A DNA stretch of 44,714 nucleotides from Candidatus Heimdallarchaeota archaeon (lineage in GTDB: Archaea > Asgardarchaeota > Heimdallarchaeia > Hodarchaeales > Hodarchaeaceae): contig DXJL01000090.1 of assembly GCA_019057635.1 (NCBI GenBank), forward strand, positions 1 to 44,714, read 5' to 3'. Every line of letters begins with the position of its first letter. The first letter of the stretch is position 1. The position numbers and the translations under genes are program-made. Shown here piece by piece: positions 2,396 to 25,000 of this stretch. The notes under the pieces are model-generated. The model did not search any database. It saw nothing but the letters and a program-made list of their open reading frames with translations, and had not been told where the DNA came from.

Positions 2396-4465
2396 TTAGA
2401 TCTTCTGAACCCGACCTGGTTGGGGTTCAAACAATTTCCCTATTCGAATCATTTTAGCTAGAGCTTGTTCTACTTGATTTCGATCTAAACCATCCTCTAC
2501 TGCTTGCTCAATGATTGCTGTGATTGGTACAGGCTCATTTTCTGATTCTTTTAACATATGATCAATTAATGCATCAATCCGATCCAATCTTCTTCGACTT
2601 TGATCGCTTATCCCAGAGGAGTATTTATCGATGTCTAGTTTCCCAGTTTCAGCATCCTTGGCCAATTTCTCTAGTGTTGCATTCATGAGATTTACAGCTC
2701 CCGAGGCATCCTCATAAGTGACCTCTTCGCTCAACCGCATTTTAGCACGAGCTTCTGATAACCTTACCAAAGCCTCGAGTTGACGTGGAGTAATAGCGAT
2801 TGGATCTGGTCTGCCTTCTTCGATCTTTCCACTTGAAGCCCTTAGATCAGTATAATATTCCAGTAATCGGGCTTCAGCTTCATCGGTGAGTTTCGGATGC
2901 TTAGTCCTACGAGCATGTGCAATATATTTTCGTAAAAGAGTCTGGTCAATTGGAGGATCAACTGGGAGAGTTTGGAGTTTATGAAGTTTCAAGATATGAG
3001 ATGCTTTATCATGATCCTCTTTCAAATCAGGTTTGTCTTCAAGAACAAAAATTAAATCAAAACGTGACAAGATGGTCGGAGGGAGATTTAAATTTTCTGC
3101 AGTAGCTTTAAAAGGATTCCAACGTCCTCTTCGTGGATTAGCTGCTGCTAATATTGAGGTTCGTGCATTCAAGGTGGCTACAATACCTGCTTTGGCTATA
3201 CTTATCGTATGCTGTTCCATCGCTTCGTGAATCGCCGTACGGTCTTCAGGACGCATTTTATCGAATTCATCTACCATAGCAATCCCTTGATCTGCAAGTA
3301 CTAATGCTCCTGCTTCCAGGGTTATTTCTCCCGTATCTTGGTCGCGAATCACAGCTGCGGTCAAACCTGCCGCTGTACTTCCTTTTCCTGTCGTATATAG
3401 TGCTCTAGGTGCCAATTTTGTTACAAATTTTAATAATTGACTTTTACCTACTCCTGGATCACCAATAAGTAGGATATTCGATTCTCCGCGGATTTTCATT
3501 CCGTCAGGTGTTTTTTTTTCACTCCCTCCAAAAAGTAGCGCTGCAATACCCTCCTTAACTAGATCGTGTCCATAAATTGATGGAGCCAGTGAATCACGTA
3601 TTTTTTTGATTATATAGGGGGACTCTGATAATTCCGTAATTTGTTTAAGATCCTCTTCGGTAATTTCAACATCCACATATTCCGCTGTTTCCTTTACAAT
3701 ATTAACTCCTTGAAAGAATTTGTTATAGGTAGCTAATTGCCCTCTTTTCAGCATTCGAGTTGATCGTGCTTTCAAAATTCCTACAACTTCGACACGATCA
3801 CCTGGACGAGCTTGATCTACGAGATCATCGAGGACATGAATCATTATGCTTTGGGGTAATTGCCCAGGGGGTAACTCTTCAGGTTTTTCTTGTATAGTGA
3901 TTTTTTGCCAGTCAATAAACAGGCTATCTTCAAGTAAAAGGACCAAGGAACCTTTTCTTTGACAATGCTCATCTCCGCATTGATAGGGGGGGCTGTAAAT
4001 TCCTTCTGGAAATTCCTCCACTTGGTGGTGGCCACACGATGCACATTTAAAATGCCCTTCAATTAATAATGGTTTTGTCTCTGTTACACCTATAACGATA
4101 CCCTCAAAATTCGTAAGCTGGCCTAAATGTTCAGTTTTTAATGTACGGAGAAGGACTTTGTCAGTGAAATTATCTATTCGAATATGAGCTTGTCGATATT
4201 TATCGAAGTAATCTGGATCATTTTGCATTAAGATTTCGTGGAGAACTTTTTCTCCCTCGTGAAAGCATTCTTCAGGATTGAGTACTATCTCTCTCGCTAA
4301 TCGGGGATCGTGATGTAACAAATCATTGTACGAAATAGGCAGGCTTCTTAGTCCTTTTCGAGGCATATCGCGTATTTTTTCACGATAGCGCAGCATGCCT
4401 GTTTCATCAGCAAATTCATTGATGAAGGATTCAAATCGTCCTCTAATATCAAAAGGTAAACTCAT
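2396..4465 (-). CDS. mcm: MCM replicative helicase
   Basis: Zn finger CASC...CGDEHC, GDPGVGKSQ, VDEFDKM, AIHEAMEQHTISIAKAG, LSRFDL, ITPRQLE; 689 aa, no intein-sized insert. Confidence 0.98.
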   Translation of the reverse strand: MSLPFDIRGRFESFINEFADETGMLRYREKIRDMPRKGLRSLPISYNDLLHHDPRLAREIVLNPEECFHEGEKVLHEILMQNDPDYFDKYRQAHIRIDNFTDKVLLRTLKTEHLGQLTNFEGIVIGVTETKPLLIEGHFKCASCGHHQVEEFPEGIYSPPYQCGDEHCQRKGSLVLLLEDSLFIDWQKITIQEKPEELPPGQLPQSIMIHVLDDLVDQARPGDRVEVVGILKARSTRMLKRGQLATYNKFFQGVNIVKETAEYVDVEITEEDLKQITELSESPYIIKKIRDSLAPSIYGHDLVKEGIAALLFGGSEKKTPDGMKIRGESNILLIGDPGVGKSQLLKFVTKLAPRALYTTGKGSTAAGLTAAVIRDQDTGEITLEAGALVLADQGIAMVDEFDKMRPEDRTAIHEAMEQHTISIAKAGIVATLNARTSILAAANPRRGRWNPFKATAENLNLPPTILSRFDLIFVLEDKPDLKEDHDKASHILKLHKLQTLPVDPPIDQTLLRKYIAHARRTKHPKLTDEAEARLLEYYTDLRASSGKIEEGRPDPIAITPRQLEALVRLSEARAKMRLSEEVTYEDASGAVNLMNATLEKLAKDAETGKLDIDKYSSGISDQSRRRLDRIDALIDHMLKESENEPVPITAIIEQAVEDGLDRNQVEQALAKMIRIGKLFEPQPGRVQKI

Positions 4466-6789: not shown

Positions 6790-7986
6790 TCAAATTTTTT
6801 CAGCACAGGGATTCCATACCCCGACTTCCAGCAATTCTTCCTTTAATACTTGGAGGTATTGCGAATTTGCTTCTTCAATCAATGAGTGACGTTCGATCTT
6901 TAGCGGGTCTAGTTTATTATCATTTAATTTTGAACTCACATCAATTTGATAGGTTTTTTTGCAATAATCAATCCATCCTTGGGGAGATACTTCAGGGAGA
7001 GAGATTCCACTAATTCCAGCTAATGTTGCCATCCACACACGAGCAACAGAATCAGGATTATATCCACCTCCTCCTAGTAATAGTAATCGTCCATTCGCAG
7101 AGCAATTATCACTTAATTCTGCAATTCTTTTTCCAAGAAAGTTATATAAATTGGTGGTTAAATTTAAATGGCCTAGTATATCACCAAAATGGCCATCAGC
7201 ACCACATTGCCAAATAATAAACTCAGGATCATATTCCCTCCAAATACAGGGAACAATTTTTTCGAAGAGATCAATAAAGAGTTCATCCCAAGTTCCTGGG
7301 AATAGTGGTACGTTAATCGTATACCCTAAACCTTCTCCCTTTCCAATTTCATCGGATAGTCCGGTGCCTGGAAATAAAAATTGAGGTGATTCATGAAAAG
7401 AAATTCCTAGCATATTTCTACTTGAGTAGAAGGCATTTAATACTCCATCTCCATGATGGACATCTGTATCGATATAAAGAACTCGCTCAATCCCGTGTTC
7501 CTCTTGAAGGTAATTGATTGCGATAACAGCATCATTATAATAACAGAATCCTGCAGCTCGTTCTTCAAAGGCATGATGTAAACCTGCCATTAATGAGAAT
7601 GCTTGGTCAACATCATTATTCATGATACGCTTGATTCCCTCTAATGTTCCACCTACAATAAGGCTAGAAGATTCATGCATTTCAGGAAACACAGGGCAAT
7701 CTCCTGTTCCAAGACCATATCTACCATAATATCCATCACCCGCCTTAGAAAGAGATTTGACCATTTTAATATAGTTTTTTGAATGGTAGCGTAAGAGATC
7801 GTCTTCTGAAGCTTCAGAAGGGGAAAACTCAACAAAAGATTGATTATCATGAAAATCGAGATTTCTATATAATTGATAAGGAATATCCAATCGTCTCGCA
7901 TTCATTGGATGCCCCTCACCTAAATTGTATTTAGTGAATTGGTCAGACCAAACTATTCCCGTTTTTTTCATCTTTGCAGGTCCCAA
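6790..7986 (-). CDS. Zn-dependent deacetylase, class I HDAC/AcuC family
   Basis: HPMNARR, GDCPVF, GLHHA, GFCYYND, DVHHGDG, QCGAD, GGGGY: full catalytic set. Confidence 0.93.
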   Translation of the reverse strand: MGPAKMKKTGIVWSDQFTKYNLGEGHPMNARRLDIPYQLYRNLDFHDNQSFVEFSPSEASEDDLLRYHSKNYIKMVKSLSKAGDGYYGRYGLGTGDCPVFPEMHESSSLIVGGTLEGIKRIMNNDVDQAFSLMAGLHHAFEERAAGFCYYNDAVIAINYLQEEHGIERVLYIDTDVHHGDGVLNAFYSSRNMLGISFHESPQFLFPGTGLSDEIGKGEGLGYTINVPLFPGTWDELFIDLFEKIVPCIWREYDPEFIIWQCGADGHFGDILGHLNLTTNLYNFLGKRIAELSDNCSANGRLLLLGGGGYNPDSVARVWMATLAGISGISLPEVSPQGWIDYCKKTYQIDVSSKLNDNKLDPLKIERHSLIEEANSQYLQVLKEELLEVGVWNPCAEKI

Positions 7987-11698: not shown

Positions 11699-12075
11699 GT
11701 GAGCATCGAAGCAACAGCCTGACTTCGGGTTTCATAGAAAATCTGAGGAAATTCCAGCCATTCGTTCAAGCCGAACAGAGGCTTTTCCTTCATTGGAGAA
11801 ATCTTTGTCAATCGAGAGGTTGGGCTCTGTTACAGAAACGACACGCCCTTATTCAAATGGCGAGGATAGAGTGAAGTCTGTGGTAACACACGATTATTTA
11901 AGCTCTTGAGGACGAATAAGGAATCGATGAGACGAACATCCTCGGTGAATGCAAGCAGAATATTTGATCTTTCACAAGATCTAGGAGAGTTGCGCTTAGG
12001 TTGATGTCAGGAACCTAAATTAGGTGACTTATTTAGGTGAACAGAAGCTGGATTACTCATTGGAGCGATGCTCAC
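11699..12075 (+). ncRNA. rnpB: RNase P RNA
   Basis: P1: GTGAGCATCG (11699-11708) pairs with CGATGCTCAC (12066-12075); GAGGAAATTCCAGC and AACAGAAGCTGGATTA form P4; internal ACAGAAAC motif. Confidence 0.95.
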
Positions 12076-19951: not shown

Positions 19952-21067
19952 ATGATTGTAGTTTCTGCACCTGGAAAATTAATGCTCTCGGGTGAATGGA
20001 GTATACTTGAGAAAAATGTTAGATGTATAGTCCTTGCAGTTCAACAGAGAGTTTTTGCTGCAATTCAACCTGAAGAAAAAATGAACATTCATATGAAAGA
20101 TTTCAACCTGACCTCAACAGGCCACTATTCTGATGGAACCCTATCCTTTGATCTCGATGATGACAGACTGATTTTTGCCAAGCATGCCATCGAATCTGCT
20201 TTAAAATACCTAGAAACACGAAACATTCCAATTATGGCCTTTCACCTTGAAACTTGGGGAGATATTAGTACAGTAAATAATACTGAAACGGGTCAAGAAA
20301 TGAAAGTTGGGTTTGGAAGTAGCGCCGCTGCGGTTGTAGCCATTATAGGGGCGATAATTCAATTTCACACAAACTCTAATTTTACGCAACAAGATAAAGA
20401 GACAATATTTAAACTAAGTATAATTTCACATTACCTGGGGCAAGGAAAACTTGGATCTGGTTTTGATGTTGCTGCCTCGACGTTTGGAGGAGCTCTTATT
20501 TATAGAAAATTTGATCCTGATTGGTTACAACAGAATATCATGACAAAAACCTTACATAACTTAGTTAATGAAGAGTGGCCTTTATTACAATATATTCCTA
20601 TAAGTTTACCCGCGGATCTTGTTATGATGGTTGGGTTTACTGGGACGAGTGCTTCCACAAAGAAATTAGTTCAAGAAATGAAGATGTATAAGGAGAAAGA
20701 TCCTGATAACTATTTCACCATTATCTCTCGAATTGCTGATGTTACCGAGCAACTTATAGAAGCTATCAAATCCACAAACCAAATATCTATTCTTAAATTA
20801 CTTGACCAAAATAGAATTTTATTAGAAGAATTAAGTTTTGCATGTTCCTGTCGCTTAGAAATAGAGGCCCATCAAGTGATGAGTCATACTGCTTCAAAAT
20901 ATGGTGCGGTAGCTAAATTTTCTGGAGCAGGAGGCGGAGATTGTAGTGTAGGGGTATGTTTTAATGAAGCAGATGCAGCCATAATTGTCAAAGAATGGGA
21001 AAAAAATGGAATTATGCCTATAGATATAGAATTCTCTAGTGAGGGGATAAAAAAGGTAAATAAATGA
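19952..21067 (+). CDS. Phosphomevalonate kinase (ERG8/MvaK2-type GHMP kinase)
   Basis: SAPGKLMLSGE, KVGFGSSAA, GSGFDVAASTFGG, FTGTSAST, KFSGAGGGDC. Confidence 0.9.
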   Translation: MIVVSAPGKLMLSGEWSILEKNVRCIVLAVQQRVFAAIQPEEKMNIHMKDFNLTSTGHYSDGTLSFDLDDDRLIFAKHAIESALKYLETRNIPIMAFHLETWGDISTVNNTETGQEMKVGFGSSAAAVVAIIGAIIQFHTNSNFTQQDKETIFKLSIISHYLGQGKLGSGFDVAASTFGGALIYRKFDPDWLQQNIMTKTLHNLVNEEWPLLQYIPISLPADLVMMVGFTGTSASTKKLVQEMKMYKEKDPDNYFTIISRIADVTEQLIEAIKSTNQISILKLLDQNRILLEELSFACSCRLEIEAHQVMSHTASKYGAVAKFSGAGGGDCSVGVCFNEADAAIIVKEWEKNGIMPIDIEFSSEGIKKVNK

Positions 21068-21095: not shown

Positions 21096-21485
21096 TTATT
21101 CTATCTCTACCGTACCATTATCGCCATCGACATGGATTTGCATTCCAGTTTGAATTTTACTAACATCGATCTGATCAACACAAGGAAGCTCTGATATGAT
21201 TGTGCCTACCGCAACGATTGCCTCGCAATCATTAAGTACCAATGCTTTCGGTCCTTTCCCCGTTTTGGCCATCTGATAGATCACATACGATCCTACAGTA
21301 GATCCTTTACCTGAGGGAAAGACTAGAATCTTATCATTAATACATATTCCTTCTAGTTCGTGCCCCTTTTCAACGACAACGCCATTGTCAGGATCAACTC
21401 CACCATAGAAAGAAATACTATCTGAAGTTACTAACGCTTCACCTGACGCTTTTCCTTTGAAAATTTTTCGACCAGTTAATTTCAT
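21096..21485 (-). CDS. Phosphomevalonate dehydratase small subunit (aconitase X swivel domain, DUF126)
   Basis: ISFYGGVDP, KILVFPSGKGSTVGSYV; TAATG-coupled to the large subunit. Confidence 0.93.
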   Translation of the reverse strand: MKLTGRKIFKGKASGEALVTSDSISFYGGVDPDNGVVVEKGHELEGICINDKILVFPSGKGSTVGSYVIYQMAKTGKGPKALVLNDCEAIVAVGTIISELPCVDQIDVSKIQTGMQIHVDGDNGTVEIE

Positions 21486-22702
21486 TATGATAGAGCCTCC
21501 TCAAGACATTCATCCATTGACATTAGTTTCACAGCGAACTTATTGCGGCCTGATCCGTAATAACACATTTTCGCAGAATCAGAGGCTAAACCGTGAAAGC
21601 GTCCTTTGATTGGTGCAACTACACAACACGTATCCGCAGCTATTTTCGCCCCCGAATCTTCTATCGTTTTTGTGAATCCCATTCTATCGGCAATCTGTTT
21701 GGTCGGTCTAGCGGTTGTAATCCATACTTCTTTCTTTGGATTTACCGTTTTTCCATTTAATTTTTTGGCAATGTATTCTAATTCGGCCAATGAGGCATGA
21801 GGACAACCTAAACTGATGAAATCAATCTCGGTTTCATCATTTAAATCTCCAAGGGCTTTCTTCATATCTTCTTCTGTAACAGTTTCGACCGTATCTGGAA
21901 TTGAATCAATTTTATTTGGAGTAATATCTTCCATGTGGAACAATGCAACACCACCATAAGTGGCATACGACGCACAAAATGATTTCAGTTCCTCAACAGA
22001 AGCCTTGGGTATTCCAGTGATATATGTGATTTTTTTGCCAAATCGATCTCCGAGGACTTTTCCTAACGCCCCAAATCGAAAAGTATCCTTCACCTCACAT
22101 TTGACATCGACCTTGAGTTCGGGTTGACGATTTTCATCTAGGTGAAATCCATATTCAGGTGTTCTTCCAACAAGAGCTGCACTTAACGCGCTTGGCCCCC
22201 CTTCACGATTGGTTTTGGCACCTAAAACGGAGTTAGCATAACAAACGGCAGAGCTCTCGCTCCATGCAATATGTTGGCCATAGGCAGGAAGATTACCATA
22301 TAAGTAGGGAGTACAGGAACACGTGGTAATTACGTCCAAACGTTTAAACGCATCTACTACACGAATCTGGTTTTCTGCAAATTCCTCATCGATAGCCAGC
22401 TTTTTCCAATCCTCAAGGTCCATTCTGGATCCAATAGCAATTAATTAGCTAAAAGATTTTCCAGCAGGATTGAGGGTGGTTAACGTTCTGACTTTTCCGT
22501 CTTTTGCCATCTCTTCTAGCCATGCTAATCCTGGTTCGTTTAAATTTGCGTAGCTTACACCCGCTATCTGAACCGAAGTGATATCTATCAGTCTTTTTGC
22601 ACCATAAATTTCACCAAGGGTTACTAATATATCCATGGCCGTTTGGGCCGCTTTACCGTATTTCCCTACCACCATATCTTGTTCTTCAGATGTTAATTCC
22701 AT
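21485..22702 (-). CDS. Phosphomevalonate dehydratase large subunit (aconitase X catalytic domain), two exons 22702-22459 and 22422-21485, 393 aa spliced
   Basis: 85-aa and 312-aa ORFs are in the same frame and join as TTLNPAG-MDLEDW; motifs GVSY, CSCTPY, WSESSA, TNREGG, GCPH, DTC all intact. Confidence 0.88.
22423..22458 (-). other. Candidate 36-nt bulge-helix-bulge-type mRNA intron
   Basis: Pre-mRNA CUGG-AAA-AUCU-UU-UAGC-loop-GCUA-UU-GGAU-CCAG-AAU-GGAC; 4-bp central helix CUGG/CCAG; cuts AA^A and AA^U restore the frame and remove an in-frame UAA. Confidence 0.8.
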
Positions 22703-22714
22703 AATTATACCTCA

Positions 22715-24025
22715 TTATTCATTTATATAGTCCTTTAAATCTACTTTGGGAAATTTTGCTCTTGCAAAACTCTTACCTTTTGTTTTAAGTGGAGCAGTTA
22801 AGTCAAATCCAATCTTATTGGTGATTTTTGTCCCAGGTTCTGCACTCGGATCTAGACTTGATCCAGGTTCTTTACCTATATCGACTAAATCCCTCTCAGC
22901 TTGAAAACGAGTGGCCATTGACCATTCTACCTCGAGAGGGTCATAAATATTGATATCTTTATCCACGACGAATACATGCTTACAGCTTCGATGGCCTTGG
23001 AAAGCGGCCTGAATTGCTTTTTTACCGTCGTCCTCTTCTTTTTTTTCTATTTTAACAATTGCATGTAACCATGAAGAGCCACCAGGATTAACATTCACAT
23101 CGATACACTTTACACCTGCTTCATTCACTGTTTTAAAAATTGTGGGTTCTCGGGGCATTCCCATTAAGACTTTATGTTCTAATGCTCCAGGGATCAATGC
23201 TTGCCATATAGGATTCTTCCTATGGGTAATTTTCCTCACTTCGAACACAGGTTCGTCTCGAATTACATCGTATGTTTCAGTTAAATCTATGAAAGGTCCT
23301 TCATCTGATCGATCCTTCATAAATACCCGCCCTTCTAATACTACTTCACACCCTGCTGGTATTAAAACATCGACTGATTTTGCTTTCACCACTTGAGTTG
23401 GAGCTAAGGCATTAGCAATTTCTAATTCATTTATTCCAGTTTTTACTGAAGTCGCAGCCCCTACTAAAATATTAGGTGTGTTTCCTATACAATAAACTGC
23501 ATCCACTTCACCAGTCCTCTCTAAAAACTTATAGAAATCTCTACCCTTGATGATTCTCGTACTCATTCGGTTTTTAGAAAATTGCATGGCCCGATGGAAA
23601 TCTAAATTCTGTCCGTATTCAGGATCTTTCGTCACCACGACTGCAGATGAAATATAACGGCCTCCATCTCGCTCATTGTGTTTTAAGATAGGTAATCTAT
23701 CTAAATCCACTTGTTCCATTACGAGTTCCTGACAAGGAGCACTTGTAACCTCCTCAGGAGCACTCCGATTATCAATGGCCTCTGTTAGTCTTGGTATGAG
23801 TTGATCGGTAGAGATACCAAAATAATTAGCTATACTGATCTTTGTACTGAAAATATTTCCTGCCACGCGGAAATCAGAATAACCTTTTATGTTTTCAAAT
23901 AGAAGAGGCGTTGGTTCAGCTGTTTTCAATACAGCAGCTGCCTCAATATCTATATCCACATCCTTTTTGATTTTAGTAATTGCGTTATTCTTTTCTAATT
24001 GCGTAATATATTCTCGAAAATCCAT
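22715..24025 (-). CDS. UbiD-family decarboxylase, probable trans-anhydromevalonate 5-phosphate decarboxylase
   Basis: LPILKH...DGGRYI, FHR, EGPF, EHKVLMG, VEWSMATRFQ, SSLDPS; lies between mvk and the PMDh subunits. Confidence 0.9.
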   Translation of the reverse strand: MDFREYITQLEKNNAITKIKKDVDIDIEAAAVLKTAEPTPLLFENIKGYSDFRVAGNIFSTKISIANYFGISTDQLIPRLTEAIDNRSAPEEVTSAPCQELVMEQVDLDRLPILKHNERDGGRYISSAVVVTKDPEYGQNLDFHRAMQFSKNRMSTRIIKGRDFYKFLERTGEVDAVYCIGNTPNILVGAATSVKTGINELEIANALAPTQVVKAKSVDVLIPAGCEVVLEGRVFMKDRSDEGPFIDLTETYDVIRDEPVFEVRKITHRKNPIWQALIPGALEHKVLMGMPREPTIFKTVNEAGVKCIDVNVNPGGSSWLHAIVKIEKKEEDDGKKAIQAAFQGHRSCKHVFVVDKDINIYDPLEVEWSMATRFQAERDLVDIGKEPGSSLDPSAEPGTKITNKIGFDLTAPLKTKGKSFARAKFPKVDLKDYINE

Positions 24026-24061: not shown

Positions 24062-25000
24062 TTAAACTCCTATTTTTGTTTTCCAAGCTGCATAACCTGC
24101 GGTCTTCAATGCATTGTAAACTTTATCCTGCAGCTCTGCTCCTGGAGTTAACACATTTATATTTCCTCCACGTCCTGTACCTGTGACTTTCGCACCCAAC
24201 GCACCTGCATCTCTAGCTATTTTTACCATCTTATCTAACTTTTCATTAGAAACAGTTATTTTTTGTAATAACTCATGATTTTTGTTCATGAGCTTGCCTA
24301 CTTGCTCTAAATTCATCAATTCGAGTGCATGACGGCCATCTTTAGCCACTGATTTATACTCTTTCACTATCTTCTCAAACCACTTGGGATTCTCTTCTTT
24401 CTTTTCACGTACATCAGCAACAACAACACTTGTATTGGCTGTCATCCCCGAACTAGCTATCACCATATCGACAGGTTTAGAAAGTTTAATGGTTTCCATT
24501 GTGTTCGGCCCTCCGTGTAGATTTTTCACGAAATAGACCAAACCACCAAATGTTGAAGCTGTATTATCAATACCACTTGGAGTTCCATGATATCCTTTTT
24601 CACCTTCATAAGCAGCTTCGTTGATTTGAGTATCATTCCATCCCAACTTGTATGCGTCATTTACGGCTCTCGCTAATGCCACACAACTAGCCGCGGAAGC
24701 TCCTACACCACTGGCGCAAGTTAATTTTCCACCTAAAGTGATTTTCAACTTCTCTTTCTCAAGATCTACACCCATAAAGGTCAGGACATTGTTTATTGAA
24801 ATTTTTTGTTCGTCAAATTTCTTTTTTTTATACCCCGGCACTTCTGGCCGGTTATCAATTAGCTCATATCCCTTACCCTCTTCAATTTCTACGATTGCTT
24901 CTGTAGAGTCGCCAATTGCAGAAGCCATTGCAGGTAAACCATAAACGACAAAATGTTCGCCGAAAAGTATTGTTTTACCAAAACCTGAACCCGTTCCCAT
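24062..25000 (-). CDS. mvk: Mevalonate kinase
   Basis: GKTILFGEHFVVYG, GVGASAA, HGTPSGIDN, GAKVTGTGRGG. Confidence 0.93.
   Translation of the reverse strand: MGTGSGFGKTILFGEHFVVYGLPAMASAIGDSTEAIVEIEEGKGYELIDNRPEVPGYKKKKFDEQKISINNVLTFMGVDLEKEKLKITLGGKLTCASGVGASAASCVALARAVNDAYKLGWNDTQINEAAYEGEKGYHGTPSGIDNTASTFGGLVYFVKNLHGGPNTMETIKLSKPVDMVIASSGMTANTSVVVADVREKKEENPKWFEKIVKEYKSVAKDGRHALELMNLEQVGKLMNKNHELLQKITVSNEKLDKMVKIARDAGALGAKVTGTGRGGNINVLTPGAELQDKVYNALKTAGYAAWKTKIGV

Follow-up and report, generated by a model that had tools for sequence, protein, structure and literature searches.

Splicing of messenger RNA (mRNA) in archaea is represented, in the main texts of the literature searched, by one coding sequence (CDS), that of cbf5 in Crenarchaeota, and by one 5' untranslated region (UTR), in Haloferax. 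The cbf5 introns mostly have unconventional bulge-helix-bulge (BHB) motifs, go with hetero-oligomeric EndA, and show a patchy distribution with gain and loss; according to the same main text, they are cut between the second and third residues of the bulge (Yokobori 2009, PMC2738675). The Haloferax volcanii intron lies in the 5' UTR of the HVO_1309 mRNA, and the main text describing it states that, apart from this case, BHB introns in mRNA were known in cbf5 only (PMC7714728). The present work concerns a stretch of 44,714 nucleotides (nt) of contig DXJL01000090.1 from Candidatus Heimdallarchaeota archaeon, hereafter the window. The AcnX gene of this window, which codes for the predicted large subunit of phosphomevalonate dehydratase (PMDh), is interrupted by 36 nt. 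This insert is probably a pre-mRNA intron with a relaxed BHB motif, spliced by EndA and RtcB, like that of crenarchaeal cbf5.

The locus shares several features with the cbf5 introns of Desulfurococcales and Sulfolobales, as their main text presents them. A short intron lies within the CDS at a highly conserved motif, the exon-intron boundaries carry a relaxed BHB, and predicted cuts after the second bulge residue restore the frame; the hosts have two-subunit-type EndA genes, and presence among close relatives is patchy. Unlike cbf5, which codes for an RNA-modification enzyme (a pseudouridine synthase), the AcnX gene codes for a predicted enzyme of isoprenoid-lipid synthesis, and its proposed intron is found in Asgard archaea, at the level of a genus within Hodarchaeales, rather than in Crenarchaeota. 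Splicing of cbf5 was shown by complementary DNA (cDNA) and in vitro cleavage, whereas the proposed AcnX intron is known from DNA sequence. Like that of HVO_1309, it would be a target of the tRNA splicing endonuclease in an mRNA rather than in tRNA or rRNA. In the main text of PMC7714728, however, the HVO_1309 intron sits in an untranslated leader, breaks no reading frame, and is cut by a homodimeric euryarchaeal enzyme needing strict motifs, whereas the AcnX motif is relaxed. The non-canonical tRNA introns of Asgard archaea (PMC11291895; bioRxiv 10.64898/2026.10.13.758758) resemble it in presumed machinery, size range, repeated gains or losses, and relaxed motifs; both sources, in their main texts, concern tRNA genes, whereas the AcnX substrate would be an mRNA. 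No BHB intron in an Asgard protein gene was found in the main texts of the literature searched, so that the supposition of the initial annotation, that one in an Asgard lipid-precursor enzyme was undescribed, holds within that literature, supplements excepted.

The Insert and Its Predicted RNA Fold

The AcnX large-subunit gene lies on the minus strand as two open reading frames (ORFs) in the same frame (Table 1). Across the break, this strand reads ...ACC ACC CTC AAT CCT GCT GGA / AAA TCT TTT AGC TAA TTA ATT GCT ATT GGA TCC AGA / ATG GAC CTT GAG GAT TGG, where the slashes mark the insert. Positions 1-82 of the Pfam AcnX profile (PF04412) match residues 1-81 of ORF1, and positions 83-400 match residues 1-308 of ORF2; as positions 82 and 83 abut across the insert, the profile has no counterpart of it. 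ORF2 aligns to residues 85-385 of PDB 7cnr, a solved homologue consisting of one chain of 386 aa (E 6.3e-77).

In the predicted pre-mRNA fold, the 5' half is canonical, with a CUGG/CCAG central helix, an AAA bulge, and an intron stem h'. In this stem, AUCU/GGAU pairs 22457-22454 with 22432-22429, and UAGC/GCUA pairs 22451-22448 with 22438-22435. The motif as a whole has the relaxed form: a central helix, one canonical bulge backed by h', and a loop at the other site. If both sides were cut behind the second nucleotide of the bulge, CUGGAA^A...CCAGAA^U, 22458..22423 (36 nt) would be removed, and the predicted joined product, GCU GGA AUG GAC, is the orthologous junction in frame, giving 81 + 312 = 393 codons. 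The initial annotation, made from the letters of the window, stands on each of these points. Its 36-nt break with an in-frame UAA between TTLNPAG and MDLEDW agrees with the sequence, the ORFs, and the Pfam boundaries; its pre-mRNA string and helix assignments proved exact on re-reading of the minus strand; the relaxed 3' site, with AAU opposite UG, was confirmed; the rule of cutting between the second and third bulge residues that it applied is the one stated for cbf5 in the main text of PMC2738675; and removal by this rule would yield a 393-aa protein with the expected junction.

The fold goes beyond chance expectation, as shown by two kinds of shuffling. The minimum free energy (MFE) of an 83-nt region around the insert, -24.9 kcal/mol (z = -3.93), was matched by none of 200 shuffles. 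When the 36 nt were shuffled, 110 of 200,000 permutations gave a 4-bp central helix with at least four adjacent intron-stem pairs in the required register. The fold constrained to the BHB (4-bp helix and 3-nt bulge) lies 0.8 kcal/mol above the MFE, in which one A-U pair slides.

On this basis, the following course can be proposed. The gene string would be transcribed, and the junctions would fold into an exon-exon helix, the 4-bp CUGG/CCAG helix, the AAA bulge with its stem-loop, and the relaxed AAU/UG loop. EndA, present as two paralogues, would cut each bulge or loop behind its second nucleotide, and RtcB would join the exons into ...GCU GGA AUG GAC..., with ...CCUGCUGGAAUGGACCUU... as the spliced junction sequence. 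The spliced product would be a 393-aa large subunit of phosphomevalonate dehydratase with a layout identical to that of intronless orthologues, while the intron would be set free, probably as a circle. On RNA left unspliced, translation would end at the UAA after 85 residues. We infer both that cleavage and ligation occur and that they do so at these positions.

Same-Site Inserts in Relatives

A PF04412 search matched 31 of 41 genomes, including 19 of the 21 other genomes of the window's genus. Four full-length relatives are interrupted at the same site: G018:C7 and G002 by 36 nt (with TAG as stop), and G018:C158 and G014:C145 by 34 nt. Two fragments are also interrupted there, a truncated copy in G008 (29 nt) and the metagenomic contig L118 (37 nt). 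Together with the genome of the window (G000; 91.6% complete, 214 contigs, 3.19 Mb), this makes seven insert-bearing alleles, all from the same Hodarchaeales genus wherever the genome is known. When 83 genomes of the class were scanned for the pattern, six places in five genomes were returned, all of this genus, against 0 for a reversed control pattern; a scan of metagenomes gave five stretches, of which L118 alone is AcnX, the other four being unrelated by translation.

Intronless orthologues carry the joined sequence. The NPAG-MD motif is uninterrupted in 15 intronless alleles of the genus and two of sister genera. Of 55 loci examined, 44 bear the motif, and in 40 of these TTLNPAG-MD is unbroken; Atabeyarchaeia, Thorarchaeota, and Bathyarchaeia are among them. 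A phylum-wide AcnX search matched 257 of 301 genomes, with no internal stop among the 150 matches listed; as a further 145 lay outside this listing, the search does not bear on other Asgard lineages. The insert lies in a CDS, is missing from orthologues, and leaves one continuous frame when removed.

The seven alleles have in common AAUCCUG-CUGG-AAN...NCAG-AAU-GGA, with an interior varying in sequence and length. CUGG and the 3' AAU are invariant (7/7), and the 3' strand of the central helix is CCAG in four alleles and ACAG in three. Over the whole structure, 90.9% of cells are paired, a share that drops to 26-47% when partners are slid. Of the eight pairs in the intron stem, four differ on both strands between alleles (UAGC/GCUA becoming UAGU/ACUA or UGGC/GCCA, for instance), and 96.2% of the stem cells are paired. 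The covariation score is 0.220 versus 0.155 in shuffles, of which 3 in 500 reach it. MFE folds keep the same architecture in five of the seven alleles, and in the four CCAG alleles the BHB constraint costs 0.2-0.8 kcal/mol over the MFE. The alignment of orthologues proposed in the initial annotation as a check on intron presence and covariation has, therefore, returned same-site inserts of 29-37 nt with compensatory stem changes.

The flanking exon also bears on the fold. The exonic CCTGCTGGA is present in 7/7 intron-bearing alleles versus 1/15 intronless alleles of the genus (G004), and the intronless sister alleles G020, G013, and G010 differ at its synonymous sites. The synonymous sites of the exonic helix strand are thus frozen, and this only where the intron is present. 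The exon-exon duplex has a mean of -10.1 kcal/mol in intron-bearing alleles (n = 5) versus -6.4 kcal/mol in intronless ones (n = 15; one outlier at -16.4), in a small sample whose rows are not independent.

Several of these relatives have features of their own. G008 has an intact intronless large-subunit gene at L125 (G008:C46) 2412-3593 (+), and about 3.5 kb away its truncated copy, at L125 (G008:C46) 7154-7525 (-), covers AcnX positions 1-115 and has a frameshift in an A-run downstream of the 29-nt insert. This fragment is immediately followed by a 984-aa ORF with no Pfam match, has UbiX-like and FMN-dehydrogenase-type genes beside it, and looks like a remnant of an intron-bearing copy displaced by the intronless one. 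L118 1170-1223 (-) is a second truncated AcnX copy, in which the 8-bp stem of the 37-nt insert is fully compensated. The points at which the L118 and G008 fragments cease to match the full gene are no more than about 16 nt apart, with 74% identity, which suggests one old truncation event retained in two lineages. An inverted fragment of the small-subunit C-terminus (residues ~96-129) is found just upstream of exon 1 at L018 340-429 (G018:C7), and the same inverted fragment is found beside the G008 fragment at L125 7764-7865. The upstream neighbour is UbiD in G000, G020, G013, and G010; since upstream neighbours differ, the intron-bearing gene exists in at least two genomic contexts. The G018 metagenome-assembled genome (MAG) contains two full-length large-subunit genes, with inserts of 36 nt (C7, L018) and 34 nt (C158, L124), which fall in different clades of the gene tree; either they are two paralogues or the bin mixes two populations (contamination about 4%).

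Selection and Evolution of the Interrupted Gene

Among intron-bearing alleles, the ratio of nonsynonymous to synonymous divergence (dN/dS) is 0.036-0.076 in seven of ten exon comparisons, the other three having saturated dS; for exon 1 it is 0.06-0.08. As these low ratios come with dS values of 0.7 to above 1 in both exons, the interrupted gene has been kept functional for a long time, and both exons are under strong purifying selection.

On a tree of exon 2 with 24 rows, five changes of the intron label are required, and starred branches force at least four of these. Approximately unbiased (AU) tests were run on a rebuilt tree of 23 rows, with the long-branch row L024 left out. For groups chosen after inspection of the tree, they reject a single clade of all five carriers (p 3.5e-108), of the three 36-nt alleles (p 0.012), and of the two 34-nt alleles (p 2e-6). 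Intronless sisters carry the exact junction. The patchy distribution would reflect either repeated precise loss or transfer between alleles, and the tree is compatible with gain as well as loss. The insert is flanked by a GAA direct repeat, at which slippage could be a deletion route.

A blastn-short search of the 36 nt against G000 returned itself and chance matches of at most 20 nt, no homing-endonuclease or cassette gene is present among the six ORFs scanned around the intron, and no Rfam family covers it.

Alternative Explanations

The in-frame stop, in a MAG assembled into 214 contigs, could indicate a dead or dying gene, or an assembly or sequencing artefact, and the two truncated intron-bearing copies (the G008 fragment and L118) do resemble pseudogene remnants. 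This is very unlikely and largely excluded. In contigs from DNA runs of other studies, a contig of the independent run X3 (record 12, 22262-22490) spans the insert with one substitution and 0 gaps, X2 covers it in two overlapping pieces, and no insert-free joint was seen. The insert recurs in four further full-length alleles, from other MAGs, dN/dS is 0.04-0.08 in both exons with dS near saturation, and the gene is the sole AcnX (PF04412) match of its 91.6%-complete genome. Translational recoding, by stop-codon read-through or by ribosome hopping from one GGA to a downstream GGA, has an even smaller share of probability and is likewise largely excluded. Hopping has a precedent in gene 60 of phage T4, and G000 offers a GGA before the insert, another 30 nt downstream, and a hairpin between them. 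However, landing on this inner GGA would add Ser-Arg, and the inserts of G018a, G002, and the 34-nt alleles hold no GGA; the only downstream GGA of these alleles is within AUGGA at the 3' edge of the insert, out of frame. Read-through would add 12 residues within a conserved motif, and it is ruled out by the inserts of 29, 34, and 37 nt, whose lengths are not multiples of three.

The main and serious rival is a truly split gene, in which the insert is a stop-plus-restart cassette: without splicing, ribosomes would re-initiate at the AUG that lies 19 nt beyond the UAA, and the 85-aa and 312-aa pieces, translated separately, would combine with the small subunit to form an active enzyme. We hold it to be improbable. 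An AUG does open exon 2 in every allele, each insert holds a stop in the upstream frame, and frame-breaking lengths of 29, 34, and 37 nt would be harmless under such a model. This AUG is, however, the conserved Met of all intronless orthologues, and is, therefore, not a feature of the insert. A GAGGU or AGGU resembling a Shine-Dalgarno (SD) sequence precedes it by about 7 nt in two of seven alleles, and the ORF1 start is also preceded by GAGGU; but G000 has only GGAUCC and four other alleles only GGU, so that no SD is conserved, and the putative one is buried in a stem of -22 to -31 kcal/mol. The break would, moreover, fall inside the most conserved local motif (TTLNPAG/MD), leaving variable tails (KSFS, KLNS, ISLAI, KSMAFF) in an enzyme whose solved homologue, 7cnr, is a single chain. 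Nor does a split gene account for the freezing of synonymous sites in the exonic CUGG strand, for the compensatory changes, or for the fact that cuts by the BHB rule restore the exact orthologous junction.

Splicing as a BHB-type intron is thus preferred, with several observations weighing against it. The strict hBHBh' form is absent, the 3' site being a 2x3 internal loop and not a 3-nt bulge. The fourth central pair is a G.A mismatch in the three ACAG alleles, for which imposing the BHB costs 2.1, 9.4, and 3.8 kcal/mol; this poor fit to a strict BHB, which counts in favour of a split gene, is the weakest point of the intron explanation. In the 34-nt G018b allele, the MFE fold contains a helix of 3 bp, and rule-based cuts in it would give a frameshift. 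The covariation statistics are modest and come from seven related sequences only. Exon 2 opens with an AUG, which two alleles precede by the SD-like GAGGU or AGGU 7 nt upstream, making its separate translation conceivable. The 21 sequencing runs listed include no RNA run with the locus, so that splicing is deduced from the DNA. Finally, targeted checks and a genome-wide scan, the latter powerless, found no second CDS intron in G000.

Splicing Machinery and Other Introns in the Genome

The genome encodes two EndA paralogues on contig C82, of 189 and 215 aa and with 25% identity, each of which has an N and a C domain, and an RtcB on C161. EndA is presumably an (alpha-beta)2 enzyme of two paralogues. 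Such pairs are reported in 44 of 60 Asgard genomes in the main text of bioRxiv 10.64898/2026.10.13.758758, and the G000 pair matches the two-subunit architecture described there.

On the 3.19 Mb of G000, ARAGORN made 20 tRNA calls, 12 of them with introns, including one 'intron' of 663 nt. The tRNA-Thr gene, at C82:89188-89293, contains a 32-nt intron with a canonical hBHBh'. In the tRNA-Met intron, the BHB that fits best forms three of four central pairs, and tRNA introns with recognisable BHB motifs measure 19-34 nt. Most tRNA genes were probably missed by ARAGORN, being heavily or non-canonically interrupted as in other Asgard archaea.

Among protein genes, the targeted checks showed no internal stop in RtcB, cbf5/TruB_N, CobO, three proteasome genes, or both EndA genes. 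The genome-wide scan, which combined BHB geometry with ORF joining, gave 846 matches versus 822-852 with displaced cut sites; after dropping downstream frames with a start codon, 87 loci were left versus 68-92 in decoys, that is, no enrichment. The five best-looking loci were rejected as ordinary neighbouring genes, such as a DnaK C-terminus followed by a J-domain protein, or a histidine kinase followed by a response regulator. As the scan had no power, it is not evidence of absence of further CDS introns.

Implications

A broader proposal can be made tentatively, and on present data seems unlikely in full: that introns removed from protein genes by the tRNA machinery are a recurring and evolving feature of Asgard archaea, and that the AcnX intron is old, was precisely lost or transferred at least four times within the genus, and acts as a gate. 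Its age is suggested by synonymous sites near saturation between carriers. Should the proposal be true, only spliced mRNA would yield the large subunit and, through the overlapping stop and start, the small subunit of an essential lipid-precursor enzyme, and membrane-lipid synthesis would be tied to EndA/RtcB capacity. Apart from this proposal, the locus displays intron turnover at one site within one genus, and constitutes a compact test case, with 36 nt in a single-copy gene and intronless sister alleles as natural controls. Gene callers split such genes, and pathway reconstructions from Asgard MAGs may wrongly score them as broken.

Gene Context and Other Features of the Window

The interrupted gene belongs to a co-directional string, in the order GHMP kinase, UbiD-family decarboxylase, AcnX large subunit, and AcnX swivel small subunit; the stop of the large-subunit gene and the start of the small-subunit gene have 1 base in common. 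We take this string to be the archaeal mevalonate route through phosphomevalonate dehydratase and anhydromevalonate-phosphate decarboxylase. A full-length PF04412 match, an adjacent PF01989, a UbiD-type decarboxylase, and a mevalonate kinase together correspond to AcnX type IIb, or phosphomevalonate dehydratase, which is the activity predicted for the large subunit from its sequence; the role of the UbiD-family gene, as anhydromevalonate-phosphate decarboxylase, is read from gene context. The identification as PMDh large subunit in the initial annotation is, therefore, borne out by the AcnX profile and the swivel, UbiD-type, and mevalonate kinase neighbours. The same applies to the probable Asgard host, the nearest public loci being from Hodarchaeota/Heimdallarchaeota MAGs.

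Table 1. Coordinates of the interrupted gene, its proposed intron and predicted fold, and neighbouring features (positions in the window)
Feature	Position	Strand	Description
ORF1	22445..22702	-	85 aa, C-terminus ...TTLNPAGKSFS*
ORF2	21485..22423	-	312 aa, N-terminus MDLEDW
Exon 1 (proposed)	22459..22702	-	Codons 1-81 (M...TTLNPAG) and base 1 of codon 82
Exon 2 (proposed)	21485..22422	-	Codon 82 (Met) bases 2-3 to stop; 312 codons from Met
Intervening sequence, proposed BHB-type intron	22423..22458	-	36 nt; in-frame UAA 22447-22445
Predicted exon-exon helix h, 5' strand	22467..22475	-	CCUCAA and UCC
Predicted exon-exon helix h, 3' strand	22411..22421	-	GGA, CC bulge, UUGAGG
Predicted central helix H, 5' strand CUGG	22461..22464	-	Exonic: last two bases of GCU and first two of GGA
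Predicted central helix H, 3' strand CCAG	22425..22428	-	Intronic; would pair with 22461-22464
Predicted 5' bulge AAA	22458..22460	-	3 nt; predicted cut between 22459 and 22458
Predicted 3' splice-site loop AAU	22422..22424	-	Opposite UG (22466-22465); predicted cut between 22423 and 22422
Predicted intron stem-loop h'	22429..22457	-	AUCU/GGAU, UU/UU, UAGC/GCUA, loop UAAUUAAUU
PMDh small subunit (AcnX swivel domain)	21096..21485	-	Pfam PF01989, E 3.3e-32
UbiD-family decarboxylase	22715..24025	-	Upstream of large subunit; Pfam UbiD_N, UbiD, UbiD_C
GHMP kinase, mevalonate-kinase-like	24062..25000	-	First gene of string; Pfam GHMP_kinases_N, GHMP_kinases_C
Second GHMP-family kinase	19952-21067	+	371 aa; Pfam GHMP_kinases_N, GHMP_kinases_C
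Archaeal RNase P RNA	11707-12067	+	Rfam RF00373, 128 bits, full model

The archaeal RNase P RNA is the sole gathering-level Rfam match in the window. The second GHMP-family kinase is divergent to the mevalonate string, and may be a phosphomevalonate kinase or another kinase of the mevalonate pathway.

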